Part shown: piece by piece, positions 1 through 19,175 of the stretch
How positions within the stretch are numbered: position 1 is the first letter of the stretch
Layout of the letters: each line of letters starts with the position of its first letter
Assembly (NCBI GenBank): GCA_036679605.1
Contig: JAZDCZ010000289.1
Span: 64,001 to 128,000, forward strand
Length of the DNA stretch: 64,000 bases
Direction: 5' to 3'
DNA from: Gemmatimonadota bacterium
GTDB lineage: Bacteria > Gemmatimonadota > Gemmatimonadetes > Gemmatimonadales > GWC2-71-9
Translations under genes and position numbers: made by a program
Notes under the pieces: model-generated
What the model saw: only the letters and a program-made list of their open reading frames with translations
Databases searched by the model: none
Told to the model about the DNA's origin: nothing

Positions 1-154
1 TTAAAGCACGTGCGACGTTGGCTGAGCGTTCTGTTTCAGCCACCTGCTGAGAATGTGTCGAATGTCTTGCTTGCCGGCTGGTTCGCGACTAGCGGAGGTG
101 GGGTAGTCTTCGCGCCCAAATCGGTCGGTGAGCCCTATGTATACGATGAAGTGG

Positions 155-295
155 GAGTGGACAGCTAACGAGTTTTGTGGATTGGGTGGTTAAACCTTTT
201 TTGCACAACTCCACATGGGCGTGGAAAGTGGTCGTAAGGTGTCCAGAGAGAGTTTGTTAGCATTCCACATTGACTGCACACGAACTGTGTCAGCC
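155..295. promoter_or_regulatory. Cluster of DnaA-box-like 9-mers (possible oriC or dnaA-upstream region)
   Basis: TTTTGCACA (199-207) fits TTWTNCACA. Degenerate copies occur on both strands: TGTGGATTG 176-184, AACTCCACA 207-215, CGTGGAAAG 220-228, CATTCCACA 261-269. The region is non-coding and dnaA is not in the window. Confidence 0.4.
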
Positions 296-311
296 GAAGA
301 AACATCGGCGC

Positions 312-339
312 TTGCGCGGTTTTCGCAACTCCATAAATT
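312..339 (+). promoter_or_regulatory. Putative sigma70 promoter for the downstream structured RNA
   Basis: TTGCGC (312-317), 16-nt spacer, TAAATT (334-339), ending ~8 nt before the first helix. Confidence 0.45.
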
Positions 340-345
340 AGCTTG

Positions 346-774
346 TGTAACTCAGGGGAAGGGTCGAGGCCCCGGCGTCGAGACTACGCCCTGAGTTAAC
401 GCCCCCAGCGAGAATTCCGGGGAGGTTGCCGAAGCAAACAAGGGCTCAGGTGACCAACGATCCGGGTGAACACCTCGACTCGGGGCTGGCGAGACCAGTC
501 GCGTGTCTTGCCCACGCTGATGTAGCGCCTCGGCGTGCAGTGTAAGGGGTCGGTCCGCGACTCGATCTGACTTGCAGCGCTCACACGGGTGAACCTTGCG
601 GCTCGGCCAAGCTGCTTGGGAATGGAAGCCGGAGCTCCCGAAAGCCCTACCGCGGATTCATCAGTCCATGCGGTGGCTGAAGGGAAGAAGAACAGAGGGA
701 GCAATTCCCCTGGCTCCGGGTAACCGGTGTGTAAGACGGCGGGTCACTGTTACGGTGCGCCCGCCGTCTTTTTT
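346..774 (+). ncRNA. Candidate large structured non-coding RNA of unknown class (~430 nt)
   Basis: Consecutive helices: 348-357/389-398 (10 bp perfect), 426-437, 484-500, 513-520/530-537, 607-619, 649-674, 693-712 (GCAA loop), 716-727 (GTAA loop). Upstream promoter, downstream terminator, and no credible ORF. Confidence 0.65.
733..774 (+). terminator. Rho-independent terminator
   Basis: AAGACGGCGGG (733-743) pairs with CCCGCCGTCTT (760-770) and is followed by a T run. Confidence 0.85.
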
Positions 775-863
775 GTCCTATCTGAAAGTGTTCTGTTTTT
801 TTTCGATCACGCCAGAGTGGAATCGGCCGTGTCTCGACGAGGGACATTCGCTACACTAACGTC

Positions 864-1073
864 ATGACCCCCTGGTTTCGCATGCCCGCCAAGAGAGAGG
901 GGCTTCGTCGGGCAGCGCTTGATGATCTTCGCCACTCATTGGCCGCAATCCGCTGCGCTATCGAGCTTGCGGAGCAAGGACACGAAACTGGAGAGCGAGA
1001 GCAGCTACTTCTTAGGGTGGCGACGCGACAGCTCGTGAGTGCGGAAAGTACAGTTGACAAAGTGGCTAGGTGA
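864..1073 (+). CDS. Small helical protein resembling a stand-alone HisKA/DHp segment
   Basis: ALDDLRHSLAAIRCAIEL resembles the H-box helix (HDLRxPLxxI) with Asp at the His position. 69 aa. Confidence 0.45.
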   Translation: MTPWFRMPAKREGLRRAALDDLRHSLAAIRCAIELAEQGHETGEREQLLLRVATRQLVSAESTVDKVAR

Positions 1074-2553
1074 GCGGAGTTCTTTCCGCGTCACCCAAAT
1101 GCTGGAGGGAAATATCTCGTTCTGCAGCAGGAATCATTGTCATCTCCAGATTGCCTTTCGGCAACAGATGGACTACGGAGTTCGCGTAGTATTCGAGTAG
1201 CGGTCGCTGCGCTGGTTGGATGACGAAGTTCTCTCCCTCCCTCACTACCAGGCGACGCATCCGCAGGGTCAGCCATGCTCGATCCAAGATCACTTCTGCA
1301 GCCCTGTCTTTCTGGACCAGCTTTGCCCCAGTCAGCCTCAGGTGATCCCGGTATTGGTCCAGTAACTCTAGCAGTGCGTGCTTCTGAACGACCGTCGCGC
1401 CAAAGCTAAGAAGAGCCGCGGCCACAAGAGGTACCGGAGTAACCGGCATGATGTCGGCGATTCTGTCCATGACTCGGCCAGCCAACTGCTGGAGTTTCGG
1501 CAGTCTCTCTTCCCTTGGCAGTCGCAGAGCGTCAGGGTTTTGTGCAGTCCAGTTCTTCAAAGAAATGGGAGTGCCAAAGTTGACGGCTACACGGCCATAT
1601 CGCTTGAGGTTTCCAGTTAGGAGTCGGACAGTATTGAAAAACAGGTAGTGCAGAACGGTGGTCATTTGGCGCAGCCGCCCCGGTCGCTCGTGGTCCGGCA
1701 GCAGTTCCATGATGAGTGAGCGATCCTCCAGGACGCGGTCATAGTTGATGGCGACGGGCACCAACCAAATGTCTCCCGTAAAGTCGGGATCGAGAATAGT
1801 ACGGACGCTGTAATCGAGCAGACCCACTCTTGGCGGGCACATCATACCTGTTTTCGTGAGCCCGCCTTCGAGAAAAATTCCCTGGGTTACTCCGTGCTTT
1901 GTAATGAGCTGAACATAGCGTTCGAGTACGGTGTGATAGAGCGAGTCATGGAAGCCACGCCGTACGAAGTAAGCACCGAATGATTTGAACACATACTCGA
2001 GGGGCCAGACGCGTGCCCACTCACCCACTGCATAACTGATGCTAACCCCATGGGCAAGAACGTAGGCGGCCACGATGTAATCCGCGTTAGAGCGATGATT
2101 CATGAGGTAGAGCACGACGTCGTTGCGGGGCAACGTGTCAAGAGCTTTGCGATCCTGATACTCTGAACTCACTTGATATAGGAGTCGGATTACGGCGCGG
2201 GAGATGTTGTATCCGATTTTGTAGTAAGAGAGCACGTGAAAGAAGGGCACGATCTCGTCGATATAGTGTTCGACCCGCACACGAGCGTCCATCTCGCTCA
2301 CCCCACGCTCTCGGCAGTGTTCCTGCATGGCATCGCGGATCGCTCGGTCGATCATGAGTTTATCTCGAACGGTTCTCTTGCTTACCAGCTTGTAGCGATC
2401 GAGTCGCAGTTGAAATCGATGTACCGCACGCAAAATGGAGCGATTCAACCGGTTGATGATTGCTCTTCGGGTTGAGCGGATTGTCCAGAGCACCATGCCG
2501 CCGGCAAGCAGAATTGCCGTAGACAGTGCCACCAGAGAAACCAAACGAGTCAA
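1066..2553 (-). CDS. Glycerol-3-phosphate acyltransferase (PlsB-like)
   Basis: NHRSNAD HX4D motif, GAYFVRR, FLEGG, VPVAINYD. Confidence 0.85.
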   Translation of the reverse strand: MTRLVSLVALSTAILLAGGMVLWTIRSTRRAIINRLNRSILRAVHRFQLRLDRYKLVSKRTVRDKLMIDRAIRDAMQEHCRERGVSEMDARVRVEHYIDEIVPFFHVLSYYKIGYNISRAVIRLLYQVSSEYQDRKALDTLPRNDVVLYLMNHRSNADYIVAAYVLAHGVSISYAVGEWARVWPLEYVFKSFGAYFVRRGFHDSLYHTVLERYVQLITKHGVTQGIFLEGGLTKTGMMCPPRVGLLDYSVRTILDPDFTGDIWLVPVAINYDRVLEDRSLIMELLPDHERPGRLRQMTTVLHYLFFNTVRLLTGNLKRYGRVAVNFGTPISLKNWTAQNPDALRLPREERLPKLQQLAGRVMDRIADIMPVTPVPLVAAALLSFGATVVQKHALLELLDQYRDHLRLTGAKLVQKDRAAEVILDRAWLTLRMRRLVVREGENFVIQPAQRPLLEYYANSVVHLLPKGNLEMTMIPAAERDISLQHLGDAERTPLT

Positions 2554-3578
2554 ACTGGAGGCCGGGGGCCGGGCTTGTCATGACGGTACGCCATGCTCTT
2601 GAGACGTGCAATTCGGACGGCCATTGGCGGGTGTGTTGCCAAGAGGTTAGCCAACGCACCTTCCTTGTGAGTGAGCCTGCGGCCCAGTGGATCAGCGATG
2701 CAAAGATGTGCGCTTCCTCTCTTGATCGTCTTGGTGGCTCCGCTCACATCCTCGATCTTGCGAAGCGCGGTAGCTAGCGCTTCCGGGTTTCTAGTGAATT
2801 GGGCAGCTGTGGCGTCCGCCAGGAATTCCCTTTTTCGGCTGACTGCGAGTGCCAAGAGTCGGGATACTATGGGAGCGAGAATGACACTGATGATCCACAC
2901 AACCAAGAGGATGGCGATGAGCGCCCCTCCCCCCTTCTTTCCGCCCGAACTTTTTGAACTACGACCACGTCTGCCTGGACCACCGAACCTGAGGATGCGC
3001 GAAGTTCCGTCCGCCACCAGAGCCATGACACCGACCAATGCTGCGAGCAGCGTCATCAACTTTACATCGTGATTTCGAATGTGCGCCATCTCGTGTGCGA
3101 CCACTGATTGAAGCTCGTCTCTTTTAAGGAGTTTGAGCAAACCCTCCGTTACGGCGACGTGCGCGTGGTGTTCATCATGACCAGTTGCAAAGGCGTTGGG
3201 GTCTTGATCGGGAACGATCCATATGGTTGGTCGGGGAATTCCAGAGGCAATTGCCATCTCCTCGACTACGTTGACCAGAGTTTTCTCTTCCTGTTTCGAC
3301 GGTGTCAGAAGCTCCCACGCGCCCGTTGCCCAAAGGATTTGCTTTGGACCCCGCTTCCACGCGTGCCATGTCATGCCGGCGGCCAGCAAAGTGGCAGCGA
3401 TGCCGAAGAGCGGGATAACGTGGTGATAATCTTGCGGTGGTGCTTCGACGGTTGATAAGTAGAAAACAACATCACCCCCGAAACCGATCCACGCGAAGAA
3501 CAGCAGAAAGACAGTTACGAGGGTGGCAGATCGGCGTCGATTCGAAGCTTGCTGTTCGAATAGGTTTTCTTCACTCAC
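2550..3578 (-). CDS. htpX: M48 membrane zinc metalloprotease (HtpX-like)
   Basis: PNAFATG, AHEMAH (HEXXH), SRKREFLAD, THPP. Adjacent to lemA. Confidence 0.9.
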   Translation of the reverse strand: MSEENLFEQQASNRRRSATLVTVFLLFFAWIGFGGDVVFYLSTVEAPPQDYHHVIPLFGIAATLLAAGMTWHAWKRGPKQILWATGAWELLTPSKQEEKTLVNVVEEMAIASGIPRPTIWIVPDQDPNAFATGHDEHHAHVAVTEGLLKLLKRDELQSVVAHEMAHIRNHDVKLMTLLAALVGVMALVADGTSRILRFGGPGRRGRSSKSSGGKKGGGALIAILLVVWIISVILAPIVSRLLALAVSRKREFLADATAAQFTRNPEALATALRKIEDVSGATKTIKRGSAHLCIADPLGRRLTHKEGALANLLATHPPMAVRIARLKSMAYRHDKPGPRPPV

Positions 3579-4167
3579 TGTTTCGCTTCATCGAAAGATC
3601 GACCTTGGGAACTTCGCGTGCTCTTTCGTCCGTTATTTCCCAAAGTTCCACGCACTCAGCATGCGCTACTCCGGCGATCAAGCTCCAAGGGAACTGCTGC
3701 TGCCGAACATTATACGTCGTTGCGGTATCGTTATAGAGCTGCCGTGCAAACGAGACACGGTTCTCTGTGGAGGTGAGTTCCTCCTGTAGTTGGGTCACAT
3801 TACCGGTGGCTTTGAGGTCTGGATATCTCTCGACGACCACGTTCAGGTGCGATAAGGCCGATGACAGGGCAGCCTCAGCAGCCGCCAGTTGTTTGACTCC
3901 AACACTGGGCGTGGCGCCGCTGCGGATTTCCACCGCTTGGTTCCGGGCCTGGATTACAGCTTCAAGTGTGTCTCGTTCGAACTCCATCGCTCCCTTGACG
4001 GCCTCTACCAGGTTGGGGATGAGATCATACCGTCGCTTCAGTTGCACGTCGATCTGTTTCCAAGCGTTCGCGGTTTGCCCCTTTAGGGCGATTAGTTTGT
4101 TGTAACCGGCTATTGCCCAGACCAGACCGATCGCCATAGCAGCAACAAACAATATGGTCACAAACAT
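3571..4167 (-). CDS. lemA: LemA family protein
   Basis: IDVQLKRRYDLIPNLV, YPDLKA, ENRVSFARQLYN. Confidence 0.95.
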   Translation of the reverse strand: MFVTILFVAAMAIGLVWAIAGYNKLIALKGQTANAWKQIDVQLKRRYDLIPNLVEAVKGAMEFERDTLEAVIQARNQAVEIRSGATPSVGVKQLAAAEAALSSALSHLNVVVERYPDLKATGNVTQLQEELTSTENRVSFARQLYNDTATTYNVRQQQFPWSLIAGVAHAECVELWEITDERAREVPKVDLSMKRNSE

Positions 4168-4215
4168 TTTTTGCGTCCTCGGTAAGTTATGGTCTAATTT
4201 TCGAAGCTGACAACA

Positions 4216-4857
4216 TTATTCCGTATGCTCTACCTGAGTAACCAAACGACTAATGGCGACCCTAACAGCATCTGCAATCTCATCGTCCTGATCCAACCGC
4301 ACCAACTCCCCCTCTTCGTCAACGTGAAGTTCAACCTCGTCTGTGATCCGTATCCTGCGCCAGATGGTTGGTGCGTTTTCGTTAGTATCTGGGTCTTGGG
4401 TCGACCGAAATGCGCGACCTGCCCTTCCTAGTGAAGGTTGCTCACGCCGCTTGATCGTAAGCTGATCGGGGGCGGGCAGGCTCGTCCCTAAAGCGGCCGC
4501 GACACGACGCTCCAAAATGTCTCCTGTTGTTTCGTCCAACTCCTTGGAGATGACCGTTAGAGTCGCGCCCTCCATCTGGCGCAGCTTGATCGTCAAGACT
4601 TGGAGTAGATGACGATAGGTGTAGACTGCAGCAGTGCCCCGCCCATCCGGACGCGCCACCAACCCCTGGGACACATAGAAGCGTATCGTGCGATCAGTGG
4701 GTCTGATGTTGGCAGCCGAGTTGGTCGGCCTTACCTCAGATGCTTCTAGTACTGCTGCGGATATTGTTGCCAGGTCACGGAGTCCGAACGGTGCCAACTG
4801 ACGGTATGCGCGGAGGTGTAAGAGAGCAGCCTCTGATGTCGCGCGAGCCGTAGTCAT
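4216..4857 (-). CDS. MerR-family HTH transcriptional regulator
   Basis: RTIRFYVSQGLVARP...YTYRHLLQVLTIK. Confidence 0.8.
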   Translation of the reverse strand: MTTARATSEAALLHLRAYRQLAPFGLRDLATISAAVLEASEVRPTNSAANIRPTDRTIRFYVSQGLVARPDGRGTAAVYTYRHLLQVLTIKLRQMEGATLTVISKELDETTGDILERRVAAALGTSLPAPDQLTIKRREQPSLGRAGRAFRSTQDPDTNENAPTIWRRIRITDEVELHVDEEGELVRLDQDDEIADAVRVAISRLVTQVEHTE

Positions 4858-5253
4858 CTAGCGTCCGTTTGCCTCCAGGGGGCCCTCGGACATGAGCGAC
4901 TCGATGAGATCCGCAATCTCGTTCATACCAAAGGGCTTGCGAATCGTTGGGAGATCATAAACGCTGAGCCACGCCTGATGGTCGTTGATCTCGACGTCGC
5001 TACTCATCACCACCACGCGGGATTTCAGGTGAGGCCAACGGCTGAGAATCAGTTGAAATAGTGTAGGACCAGACATGGTGGGCATGCGCAGATCCATTAG
5101 CACCAGATCGACGCTATGTTCTTTCAGGATCTCGCACGCTTCCTCACCGGATCCGGCCAGGAATACGGTGAACCCCCGGCGTTCAAGCGCGATTCCCAGC
5201 ACCTTTCTGACGGCTGCGTAATCGTCGACCACTAGAACAGCGCGATTGTTCAC
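4858..5253 (-). CDS. Single-domain response regulator (CheY-like)
   Basis: VLVVDD, DLRMP, KPF motifs. Confidence 0.9.
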   Translation of the reverse strand: MNNRAVLVVDDYAAVRKVLGIALERRGFTVFLAGSGEEACEILKEHSVDLVLMDLRMPTMSGPTLFQLILSRWPHLKSRVVVMSSDVEINDHQAWLSVYDLPTIRKPFGMNEIADLIESLMSEGPLEANGR

Positions 5254-6050
5254 GATGCGTTCGCCATCTCCGCCGTCCGCTTGGCGAAAAACTGCTTGCG
5301 CACCACCTCAATGACTTCGGCAGAATCGAACAGCACCCGCAACTCCTTTGGGGTCACTCCAAAGACCTCTCTTACCTTCTGGGCGAAGGTTCGCGTCTGA
5401 GCATAGCCGAGTTTTCTTGCCACGTCTTCCACAGTATAACCAGGGTCTTGCAACAATCTGTGGCCATACACCACCCGCAAGACCGTTAAAACCACGCTTG
5501 GCGTTGGGAGATTGGCCCGCGCAAACCACCTGAGACAGGTACGTCGGTCCATGCGCGCCCGGATCGCTAGGTCCTGTACCGTCTGAACCTTTCCGGGTTC
5601 GCGGATAATCGTCTCGATCGCCCACTTCAGCTGCGCTGGACATTCGGAGAGGAGATCGCTGATGGACGAGATCATCCTGTGCGAGACGCCCTCAGCAGCA
5701 GCCTGGACTAGAAGATCGCCGAGCCTTGCGGGGTGATCGTCATGCTGGGCAATCACGACCTCCCGGATTCCTGCTTCTCCAAGTCTCAGCAGCACCGAAG
5801 CCATGGCGGGGGTGAGATGTGTGTACACGACGAGAGGTAGTGATGGGAAGAAAACCCGAAACCGCTCAATTTCCTTTGTAGTGGGTTCTCCCTCCAAGGC
5901 TGGGTCCACCACGGCCGCCTCTAGTGGCTCCCGCAGGATTGTATTGAGCGCCCCTTTCCAATCGTCTACCGGGAGGAAAGTAAACCGATGCCGCCCGGCC
6001 CGCGTGAGCTGAGCAAGCCTTGATCTCGAAACTGCCGCCAAAATCAGCAC
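5250..6050 (-). CDS. AraC/XylS-family regulator with a degenerate receiver-like N-terminal domain
   Basis: C-terminal double HTH: TVQDLA..MDRRT and TVEDVARKLGY..FREVFGVTP. Confidence 0.85.
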   Translation of the reverse strand: MLILAAVSRSRLAQLTRAGRHRFTFLPVDDWKGALNTILREPLEAAVVDPALEGEPTTKEIERFRVFFPSLPLVVYTHLTPAMASVLLRLGEAGIREVVIAQHDDHPARLGDLLVQAAAEGVSHRMISSISDLLSECPAQLKWAIETIIREPGKVQTVQDLAIRARMDRRTCLRWFARANLPTPSVVLTVLRVVYGHRLLQDPGYTVEDVARKLGYAQTRTFAQKVREVFGVTPKELRVLFDSAEVIEVVRKQFFAKRTAEMANAS

Positions 6051-6054
6051 GAAT

Positions 6055-6093
6055 GTCCCAATAACGACCTATAAAGTCCCAAAAACGCCCTAT
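6055..6093. promoter_or_regulatory. Tandem 18-bp direct repeats at a 21-bp period (AraC-type operator candidate)
   Basis: GTCCCAATAACGACCTAT (6055-6072) versus GTCCCAAAAACGCCCTAT (6076-6093), 16/18 identical. Confidence 0.6.
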
Positions 6094-6170
6094 CGGGAAC
6101 ACTACTCCGCATCAAACTTGAATTGGTCATCTGAAGACAGTCTCCCATTCCAAACCATATGGAGGGCACC

Positions 6171-6326
6171 ATGTCCCGCACTACTCGCCTATTAGCAATC
6201 GCCATCCTCAGCTCCTTTGCTCTCAGCGCAGCGGCTTGCAGCGATCCCGCGGCCCCGCGCAACGACTGCACGGACGTTCCGGGACAGCCTTGCATATCGC
6301 AGAGCATCCAGAACTCGGGCATCTAG
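6171..6326 (+). CDS. Small lipoprotein-type secreted peptide (51 aa), absent from the ORF track
   Basis: GGAGG RBS at 6161-6165. Translation MSRTTRLLAIAILSSFALSAAAC-SDPAAPRNDCTDVPGQPCISQSIQNSGI has a lipobox AAA|C. Confidence 0.8.
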   Translation: MSRTTRLLAIAILSSFALSAAACSDPAAPRNDCTDVPGQPCISQSIQNSGI

Positions 6327-6352
6327 GAAGGCTCGTCCGCGTTTCAGGAAGA

Positions 6353-7633
6353 TCACATGGCCTCAAGAGCCTGTAGCTCTTGAATGGCCGTGTGTAATTC
6401 CGGTAGGGCAGTTTCCGAAGTCGGGGGTACCGCGCTCGCAACTTTGCAGGCGCGGCGCTCCCGCACGCAGCCCAATGCATCCTCGATTCGGAATAGTCTT
6501 TCCCCGAGCCCATAGCGCTCGGCCAGCTCGATTGCATGGACTAGGTGCTTCTCGGCCCTGGCATGGACGCCGAATTGCGAGAGCCCAGTTCCTACCTTGA
6601 ACTCGAAATCGACTTGCTCGTCCGGCGGAAGGGAGTCCAGATGGTTGCTAACCTCCTTTCGCCACCTTTCAAAGGAGATTCGATCCACGATCACTGAACT
6701 CACTTCAAGCATTTCTAGTGCGGTTCGTACACGCACTTGAAGAGGAGGGTCCCCGGAGAGAACCAGCTCAAACGCATGCTCTGCCGCAGCGTAGTATCCC
6801 AGTTCCTTGAGCAACACACCGGTGTCGCTCAACGCCCGTGCCCGGCTGATCGGAGCTTCGTACAATTGAAAAGCTCGGAAGATCAGGGGTATAGCCTCCT
6901 GAGTCCGTTTCATCAAGTGCAGCGCGACCCCTAGGTCCTGACAGCCGTGTGCCTCGGCGACCACGTCACCTTCCCGCAAGGAGTCCGCAACCACTTGTCG
7001 TAGGGCACGTTCAGATTCCGGAAGGTTGCCCGTTTTCTGCATAACGACGGCGCGGCCGATTCGGGAGCGTCTTTCTGAGTGGGAGTCTCCCATGCGTTCC
7101 GCCATCTGCCCGCCGAGCGAGTATGCCTCGGTCGCCATCGTGCAAAGGCCACTGAGTCGGAGCACCCGCCCTTTTTGTAGGAGTGCCGCTACCTCCTCTT
7201 CCCCGTCCCCTCCATCGCTCAGATGTAGCGTCGTGTCGAGTACGTCCAGAGCTTCGTCCAGACGGAGATCGTCCTCCAGCAAGTACGCGAACGCCAGGAG
7301 AGGCGAAAAGAGGAGATGTGGGTCGTCCTCCTTCAGGGCTGTGTCAGCCAAGTGTACTATCTCGCGAAGGTTCTTCACCTCGGACGTCTGTGGATGGAGG
7401 TCACGGAGAAACTCAGCTGTTGCCTTTATCTGGTAGGCGGTCGCTTCGATGCTGAAGTGCTCGTGCGGAGCAGCAAACTGATCGACCAGCCGAAGCGTTA
7501 GGAACGCGCCGAGACAGTGCTGTCCCGATCCCTGCCCCTGCCCTTGTGCGTTCCCGGCTCGCTCCAGGAACGGTTGGTGAAAATTGGAGTGCCGGGGCGA
7601 CGTCGCCCGATAGGATTCTAGGTAAGAAGTCAC
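6353..7633 (-). CDS. TPR-repeat protein, cytoplasmic, no catalytic domain seen
   Basis: Serial TPR-like helix pairs (ALLQKGRVL, SRIGRAVV, GCQDLGVAL, ALSDTGVLL). Probable GTG start at 7633 after AAGGGG. ORF is open to 7726. Confidence 0.8.
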   Translation of the reverse strand: MTSYLESYRATSPRHSNFHQPFLERAGNAQGQGQGSGQHCLGAFLTLRLVDQFAAPHEHFSIEATAYQIKATAEFLRDLHPQTSEVKNLREIVHLADTALKEDDPHLLFSPLLAFAYLLEDDLRLDEALDVLDTTLHLSDGGDGEEEVAALLQKGRVLRLSGLCTMATEAYSLGGQMAERMGDSHSERRSRIGRAVVMQKTGNLPESERALRQVVADSLREGDVVAEAHGCQDLGVALHLMKRTQEAIPLIFRAFQLYEAPISRARALSDTGVLLKELGYYAAAEHAFELVLSGDPPLQVRVRTALEMLEVSSVIVDRISFERWRKEVSNHLDSLPPDEQVDFEFKVGTGLSQFGVHARAEKHLVHAIELAERYGLGERLFRIEDALGCVRERRACKVASAVPPTSETALPELHTAIQELQALEAM

Positions 7634-7776
7634 GTCAAGATTCCCCTTTAGAGCTGTTTCTGAGGTCTTAGCAAGTATGGCGCCAGAAGGGTGCTGCTGC
7701 AAGACCGCGTTTTTCTGTACCCCCATGCATTGGAAAGTGTCTGCGCAGCGGTGCCTTGCACCATAACCTTTGCGGT

Positions 7777-19005: not shown

Positions 19006-19077
19006 GGCGCCGTGGCCAAGTGGTAAGGCGGAGGTCTGCAAAACCTCTATTCGGCAGTTCGAATCTGCCCGGCGCCT
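19006..19077 (+). tRNA. tRNA-Cys (GCA)
   Basis: Acceptor stem GGCGCCG/CGGCGCC, anticodon loop CTGCAAA, TTCGAAT T-loop, U discriminator. CCA is not encoded. Confidence 0.97.
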
Positions 19078-19175
19078 CTCCGCTCGCTTTGCGAGCGATC
19101 GTGGGCCGCACAGCTTCGGTCAACGCCGCTCGTCTCTGACTCGCGGCTTACGGTCGAATCTGCCCGGCGCCTCTC
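19059..19175 (+). repeat. 22-bp direct repeat of the tRNA-Cys 3' end (att-like) around a 73-nt spacer
   Basis: TCGAATCTGCCCGGCGCCTCTC at 19059-19080 and 19154-19175. Confidence 0.9.

Follow-up and report, generated by a model that had tools for sequence, protein, structure and literature searches.

A structured non-coding RNA with a double-pseudoknot core, conserved in a clade of Gemmatimonadota

An intergenic interval in a Gemmatimonadota genome had been predicted to hold a highly structured RNA of about 430 nt with its own promoter and terminator. Is this a real RNA, does it belong to a known family, and what might it do? The interval lies in the window, by which we mean the whole stretch of 64,000 nt that was analysed (contig JAZDCZ010000289.1, positions 64,001 to 128,000). 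The features that define the gene are listed below in window coordinates.

The RNA gene and its transcription

346-774, +: ncRNA gene; full-length homologs measure 412-436 nt
312-339, +: sigma-70-type promoter (-35 TTGCGC 312-317, spacer 16 nt, -10 TAAATT 334-339), conserved in the homolog alignment
734-774, +: intrinsic terminator (stem 734-769 and U-tract), its pairing kept while the sequence varies
1-168, +: 3' end of the orphan 206-aa gene P0001, which starts upstream of the window (C212:63548)

The gene at 346-774 (+) is intergenic: the orphan gene ends before it, at 168, and a glycerol-3-phosphate acyltransferase gene follows in convergent orientation. The RNA gene occurs once in the source genome. 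Folding of the + strand gave z = -3.7, equalled by none of 100 shuffles, and the - strand of the same region gave z = -2.2. This strand asymmetry, with the frequency of G-U pairs, indicates that the conserved molecule is RNA and not DNA. The perfect 10-bp helix expected at 348-357/389-398 was indeed perfect, and the promoter placed just before it is conserved across homologs, though a strict sigma-70 scan called no promoters, the 312-339 element included. The strong terminator foreseen at the end of the region was upheld by stem pairs that persist through sequence change. Overlapping ORFs had been suspected of being spurious. In 153 homologs, 947 of 965 indel events were not multiples of 3; the 102-aa frame was broken in 125 homologs, the 87-aa frame in 103 and the 44-aa frame in 55, and no ORF was conserved. 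Judged on this alignment the ORFs are spurious, and the locus encodes a real, conserved RNA class.

Expression was examined in four RNA libraries from four studies, among 24 runs found. Among the matches listed, contigs from these libraries covered window positions 408-729 of the ncRNA. Four near-identical contigs, with only 1-7 differences, began at 414-427. Since the runs were picked for holding this stretch and the contigs carry no strand, end or level, these data support transcription and only hint at 5' trimming. The flanking genes had no coverage in these libraries, which we do not take as a sign of the RNA's level.

Beyond the terminator, a 69-aa ORF (864-1073, +) has a weak HisKA-like match (E 0.018) and a start apparently common to a genome of the same genus. 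The minus strand at 1066-7726 carries acyltransferase, HtpX, LemA, MerR-like, receiver, AraC-like and TPR genes; in close relatives part of this run shares synteny with the RNA.

Fold, deletion forms and self-pairing

348-398, +: P1, a variable 5' hairpin with an internal loop, missing in second copies and minimal forms
403-485, +: 5' domain, with covariation (P2 403-411/475-485, P3 417-430/449-465, P4 about 465-474)
431-448, +: conserved apical loop of P3, within the 5' domain
488-581, +: core (P5 488-495/505-512, P6 513-520/530-537, P7 541-553/562-576)
498-503/556-561, +: PK1, a covarying kissing pseudoknot that joins loops L5 and L7
524-528/577-581, +: PK2, a covarying H-type pseudoknot of L6 with the strand 3' of P7
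582-731, +: 3' domain (P8 582-590/723-731, P9 594-603/610-619, P10 627-634/714-721, P11, P12, P13 693-712)
604-609, +: loop L9, palindromic GGCC, a predicted intermolecular kissing loop
620-626, +: purine linker between P9 and P10; an A-rich linker precedes P13

Covariation showed a fold of 13 helices and two pseudoknots, in keeping with the high structure and further helices that had been predicted; neither pseudoknot was part of that prediction. RNAalifold on 27 sequences returned 121 pairs, 82 of them changed on both sides, and mutual information across 153 distinct full-length copies recovered the same helices. For 486-733, 45 of 62 sequences were aligned (thinned at 93% identity, one truncated form removed); 96.1% of cells were paired and 50 of 83 pairs had changed on both sides. 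None of 500 shuffles paired as well, and slid controls paired at about 40%. In a more diverse set of 46 sequences, 97% of core cells were paired. PK2 was 100% paired in this set, four of its five pairs having changed on both sides; five pair types occurred at the first pair of PK1. A divergent member adds another PK1 swap, and two of the most divergent forms have a degenerate PK1.

The two GNRA loops of the original prediction fared differently: the GCAA loop caps P13, but the GTAA-capped hairpin at 716-727 is contradicted by the covarying P10 and P8 pairings, in which 714-721 pairs with 627-634 and 723-731 with 582-590. A third pseudoknot, between the P3 loop and 644-648, was considered and rejected; it showed no covariation, and the loop survives loss of the 3' domain.

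By blastn, 43 of 60 relatives had a homolog. Two covariance models, R1 of 246 positions and R2 of 98, detected the RNA in 73 of 74 genomes of its own family, f1, in 2 of 2 from family f3, and in 0 of 74 from ten other families of the phylum; a fuller f3 search found it in 24 of 27 genomes. Both f1 and f3 are families of Gemmatimonadales. These tallies take in unpublished genomes G015 (blastn set) and G095 (model searches), and the conclusions are independent of both. The named public records with true matches were all Gemmatimonadales, Gemmatimonadaceae or Gemmatimonadota MAGs. Pattern matches in other taxa were attributed to chance (of the matches listed, 12 were tested with R1, best E 0.076), other phyla being sampled in this way. 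No true copy was found in viral contigs, phages or plasmids, the viral scans giving 0 and 1 chance match and the phages 0. Homologs and covariation, by which the prediction could be checked, were both abundant, and the near-universal presence of the RNA in its clade points to strong selection.

Extra copies occur in 18 of the 76 RNA-bearing genomes, away from the protein gene and without the upstream boxes described below. These second copies make up a separate clade, have neither P1 nor the box cluster, are driven by a different promoter and lie at varied locations. One locus (L571, G182:C8 about 77600-78200) holds a tandem pair of reduced copies of the second type, each with promoter and terminator.

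At the orthologous locus, with promoter and terminator kept, the 3' domain has gone in some lineages and both outer domains in others; in all, several lineages have a lost or degenerate 3' domain. The minimal forms, of ~130-150 nt, comprise the promoter, P5-P6-P7 with PK2, a short tail and the terminator. In a promoter-anchored scan (120 matches listed), every one of the 113 loci with sufficient DNA downstream contained the core. Among the matches listed with long flanks (n = 76), 70 loci were full, 2 were without the 3' domain and 4 scored as core only. The core of ~100 nt (P5-P7, PK1, PK2) is the part that was never lost. Because the outer domains were lost and the core was kept, function appears to sit in the core. 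Few unpaired bases there are conserved. From the topology, the P5/P6 and P7/PK2 stacks would form a pair of rods, clamped together at each end, that offers a rigid surface for docking.

Loop L9 was surveyed in 179 distinct 3' domains, 162 of them from the primary clade, and counted by hand. In the primary clade it read GGCC in 135 copies, GAUC in 4 (two origins), GCGC in 2 and AGCU in 1; the 20 non-palindromic loops were 19 GACG tetraloops, all from one clade, and one GGCA. On a FastTree tree, four of six departures from GGCC reached another Watson-Crick palindrome by a double change, where by simple arithmetic only 6 of 54 possible double changes keep the palindrome. Neighbouring loop bases cannot pair in-chain, yet they covary, which argues for a symmetric kiss of two molecules. 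This is the hallmark of OLE RNA, a symmetric palindromic kissing loop with covariation of adjacent bases, and L9 appears to possess it. In the OLE account of Kretsch et al. (PMC12286853), the L9.3 bridge proven by cryo-EM exchanges GGCC for either GAUC or AGCU, and the same covariation argument was used to draw that kiss. Palindrome switching in L9 thus carries the signature of the OLE intermolecular loop, and full-length forms are probably two molecules joined by a symmetric L9-L9 kiss. The palindrome is also gone in some f3 copies and most second copies, and a later sample held two more non-palindromic f3 loops. Since the palindrome was lost in some lineages and the whole 3' domain in others, dimerisation cannot be the essential function.

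P4 had 0-2 unpaired nt in 145 of 153 copies, compared with 0-19 of 153 for seven control hairpins (P9 aside). It was fully self-complementary in 72 of 153, with centres GAUC (38), GGUC (10), AGCU (10) and GUGC (5). P4 may be a second intermolecular bridge, or a short stem with a variable tetraloop.

Upstream boxes and the neighbouring protein

176-280, both orientations: cluster of DnaA-box-like 9-mers with a TCCACA core and conserved spacing; predicted sites
290-311, +: conserved element just 5' of the -35, UP-like or a factor site; partly the anchor of its alignment

Five boxes at up to 2 mismatches fall within 161-310, and as many were present in only 8 of 44,607 genome windows; by another count the cluster is the genome's top one. 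Most letters of the box core were 87-100% conserved in 119 upstream regions. The boxes were scored against what we take to be the DnaA consensus; the first three positions fit it poorly, and another factor may bind. Similar degenerate boxes lie at the dnaA-dnaN origin and the dnaA promoter in the same genomes. The cluster moves with the RNA gene on inversion, and in four long assemblies the distance of that gene from dnaA is 36, 41, 135 and 183 kb. On this evidence we lean towards the view that the boxes bind DnaA, which would set transcription of the RNA.

The cluster could instead be a DnaA titration site or second origin, with the RNA priming or modulating replication. Its rank as the genome's top cluster and its nearness to dnaA in 4 of 4 long assemblies would suit such a role, but we judge it quite improbable. 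TAG trios occur at dnaA-dnaN in 5 of 5 genomes, with the skew minimum there in G167 (unclear in G036), while the RNA promoter has no TAG trios, the RNA ends in a terminator, and the skew minimum of its own contig is 21 kb from the locus. These marks place the origin at dnaA-dnaN, so the RNA promoter is not the origin, and the RNA locus was rejected as one. Complementarity between the RNA and the dnaA/origin region showed no run of 10 nt or more.

Three further observations were made on these elements. The source genome's origin lies at about 106400-106700 of G000:C419 (with L255-L258), with clear TAG trios and degenerate DnaA boxes. A second box cluster with promoter element, at G000:C401:9590-9760 (L259), has no RNA after it; this copy may be a duplicate in decay, a promoter under shared regulation or part of a contaminant contig (6.3% contamination). 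At L625 the box cluster is halved, possibly through insertion or rearrangement, and the sequence after it is unrelated; no RNA lies within 2.5 kb.

The neighbouring gene encodes P0001, an alpha/beta protein with an internal duplication of two repeats (HHalign 88%). Its AF2 model was confident (pLDDT 84.7). Searches gave no match in Pfam or the Atlas and none by Foldseek at E <= 0.001; the best structural match, VIA (Z 6.4, rmsd 2.8 over 78 residues), was not a clear one. A search of 1.84 billion representatives returned 130 matches, apparently the same family or fragments; one outlier that was checked proved a low-complexity artefact.

Of 151 genomes, the P0001 profile matched 76, exactly those with the RNA. 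In 75 of the 76, RNA and protein gene are within about 1.6 kb of each other (read by eye); in the other they are split across contigs. This co-occurrence reflects roughly one gain in one clade and is thus not independent evidence. Genome G023 has neither, and an assembly gap may explain both absences. Anchored on the protein, 36 of 43 loci had the RNA; of the 7 misses, 5 end less than 400 nt downstream and 2 are without the RNA. A second such set had it in 59 of 80, with 20 misses having under 1.3 kb downstream and one an interrupted promoter. In most of f1 the P0001 gene lies upstream in the same orientation as the RNA; in f3 and G077 it is found downstream and faces the RNA. Adjacency was kept through these inversions while other neighbours turned over. 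In 123 partly redundant loci the other neighbours included an HD-domain gene (39), HtpX (22), the acyltransferase (19), RtcB (10) and archease (6); kinship among genomes makes neighbour and locus counts non-independent.

P0001 is accordingly a candidate dedicated partner of the RNA, with about an even chance of being so. The RNA could also act alone or with a general machine (ribosome, RNA polymerase or RNase), as a structural mimic or an RNA-only assembly beside which the 206-aa gene is a mere neighbour. P0001 is acidic (median pI 5.6, net charge -6), which is unusual in an RNA binder; second copies are free-standing and the core has few conserved unpaired bases. ROOL and GOLLD, in the account given in PMC12286853, assemble without protein. 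Against this stand adjacency kept through at least two inversions despite neighbour turnover, and the identical distribution of RNA and P0001. We regard action without P0001 as unlikely, if the strongest of the alternatives.

Were P0001 a regulator and not a subunit, it would bind the inverted TCCACA repeats and control the RNA promoter. A two-repeat protein suits an inverted repeat, the boxes adjoin the gene, and P0001 has a weak likeness to AP2 DNA-binding repeats (Z 5.3). That score is within background, however, the protein is acidic, and the same boxes occur at the true origin and the dnaA promoter, which makes this role improbable.

Comparison with known RNAs and proposed role

In the Rfam 15 search the best match in window 1-3000 had E 0.33, below the gathering threshold, and the whole window gave one tRNA only; a confident match was thus absent, as had been anticipated. 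That tRNA-Cys is at 19006-19078 (+), and the nearest tRNA in the window is 18 kb away. Nine loci with reduced, second-copy, f3 or orphan-promoter forms gave nothing above E 0.2 in Rfam. Outside every Rfam family and equipped with a promoter and terminator of its own, the RNA fits the original description of a stand-alone, lineage-specific large structured ncRNA. Its suggested place in the size class of OLE, ROOL and GOLLD holds as an analogy and fails as membership, for it belongs to none of them.

Like OLE, whose proteins are OapA/B/C, it is a large, ornate chromosomal RNA with a palindromic loop, here a predicted kissing loop, and a neighbouring protein gene, here a candidate dedicated partner. 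It differs in length (430 against about 580-600 nt), in its double-pseudoknot core, in phylum and in having forms down to about 140 nt. The oapA gene adjoins OLE RNA; among the neighbour clusters here there was no such membrane-protein family, and the neighbour is an orphan alpha/beta protein, not membrane OapA. The OLE model RF01071 gave no match over the cut-off in five genomes (best E 2.6, elsewhere), in a search in which no positive control genome matched, so that its sensitivity leans also on the Rfam search of the window. ROOL and GOLLD share its multiple pseudoknots, purine-rich linkers, candidate self-interacting loops and modular domains; unlike them, it has no covariance-model match, is smaller and near-universal in its clade, and is not found in phages, plasmids or tRNA arrays. 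The raiA motif, ARRPOF and HEARO/omega RNA are likewise structured ncRNAs, of 200-350 nt with pseudoknots, and ARRPOF is reported to dimerise through kissing loops (PMC12990946). Again a covariance-model match is missing, as is a neighbouring nuclease or transposase ORF: HEARO RF02033 gave 0 matches (no positive control matched), and there was no IscB/IsrB/TnpB ORF among the neighbours. CcnA of Caulobacter, reportedly linked to cell-cycle regulators, offers an analogy for regulation alone.

The prediction that the RNA is not RNase P, tmRNA or SRP was borne out by genes for all three elsewhere in the genome: the true rnpB is on C419, ARAGORN found one tmRNA, on C332, and none in the window, and a small SRP RNA is on C18. 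A split SRP/Alu domain was rejected because the distributions are not complementary and short SRP also occurs in families without the RNA. Six genomes of f11 and f12 (G062, G065, G068, G070, G072 and G074) have a large SRP RNA and the rest of the sampled phylum a small one. A divergent 6S lies on C173 at about 93510-93700 minus (E 1.3e-7), syntenic with f2; it was found with a profile of 11 relatives' sequences, one from unpublished genome G127, and Rfam RF00013 missed 6S in all 74 f1 genomes searched. The gene downstream of it is presumably folE. Replacement of 6S was discarded, both because of this gene and because the ncRNA fold is branched and not a rod with a central bubble. No group I or II intron model matched inside 346-774; this, the intergenic position and the RNA's own promoter and terminator confirm that it is not such an intron.

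A cis-acting leader, 3' UTR or divergent housekeeping RNA had some appeal while 6S was undetected, and is now very improbable and largely refuted. Downstream genes vary and mostly face the RNA, with no fixed co-oriented class, which also disposed of a riboswitch or leader; the RNA can be convergent to P0001, and RNase P, tmRNA, SRP and the divergent 6S are all elsewhere.

A ribozyme or processed RNA would have a core that cleaves, or a 3' domain that is an RNase P-like P4 relic, with RtcB, archease or HD nuclease handling the ends. Compact double pseudoknots are typical of small ribozymes, and the core is one. The RNA has the size of RNase P RNA, and by eye P10 and its flanks resemble that RNA's P4 and 3' motif, the genome's own P4 included. 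RtcB, archease and HD-domain genes adjoin 10, 6 and 39 of 123 loci, and the four near-identical contigs starting at 414-427 are a weak hint of processing. Self-cleaving ribozyme models, however, matched neither the window nor the nine variant loci. RNase P homology was rejected, with an alignment score of 18 falling below shuffles (20 +/- 2.4); the topology is nested, P10 is without the bulged U, and the 3' domain is dispensable. The end-handling enzymes are missing from most loci. This reading is accordingly as doubtful as that of P0001 as a regulator. In the genome's RNase P RNA itself (L039:1501-1869), the conserved 3' region that precedes the 3' strand of P4 is unusual relative to the consensus.

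Our literature search found no description of the RNA, in a scope that took in few subscription journals. The main text of two 2026 preprints that mine whole genomes for ncRNAs does not contain 'Gemmat', and their supplements and database may hold this RNA as an unnamed cluster. The RNA would thus be a class for which no prior description was found, apparently new in sequence, fold and partner.

The reading we prefer, at a little under even probability, is that of a scaffold RNA that assembles with itself and works together with the orphan protein, controlled by DnaA. By analogy with OLE, a constitutive chromosomal ncRNA would act through its shape as a protein scaffold. The L9-L9 kiss, and perhaps a P4-P4 duplex, would join two full-length molecules, the 5' and 3' domains would be an optional assembly shell, and DnaA on the upstream boxes would make the amount of RNA follow growth or replication state. 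That the RNA scaffolds or sequesters a protein in step with growth is itself a tentative hypothesis. More speculatively, and rather unlikely, this would be a new ribonucleoprotein class, built on an RNA close to the origin and controlled by DnaA. Its core would bind a protein of orphan fold and link replication or growth state to a cellular target, and its optional outer domains would switch it between a small monomer and a symmetric dimer or cage. If so, the three natural sizes of 140, 280 and 430 nt would reveal how an ornate RNA grows from, or is reduced to, a minimal core.

To our knowledge, few bacterial ncRNA classes exceed 350 nt, and each of those known is either an ancient machine or, like OLE, ROOL and GOLLD, unsolved. 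'Large ornate RNA' is a descriptive bin and not a mechanism, and the likeness to OLE is an analogy. This RNA offers three handles that are rare for its kind: a protein that may be its partner, a possible regulator and a series of natural deletions down to a 100-nt core. With these, the function of an ornate RNA, and whether the multimer is that function or an add-on, would be testable in vitro without a cultured host.
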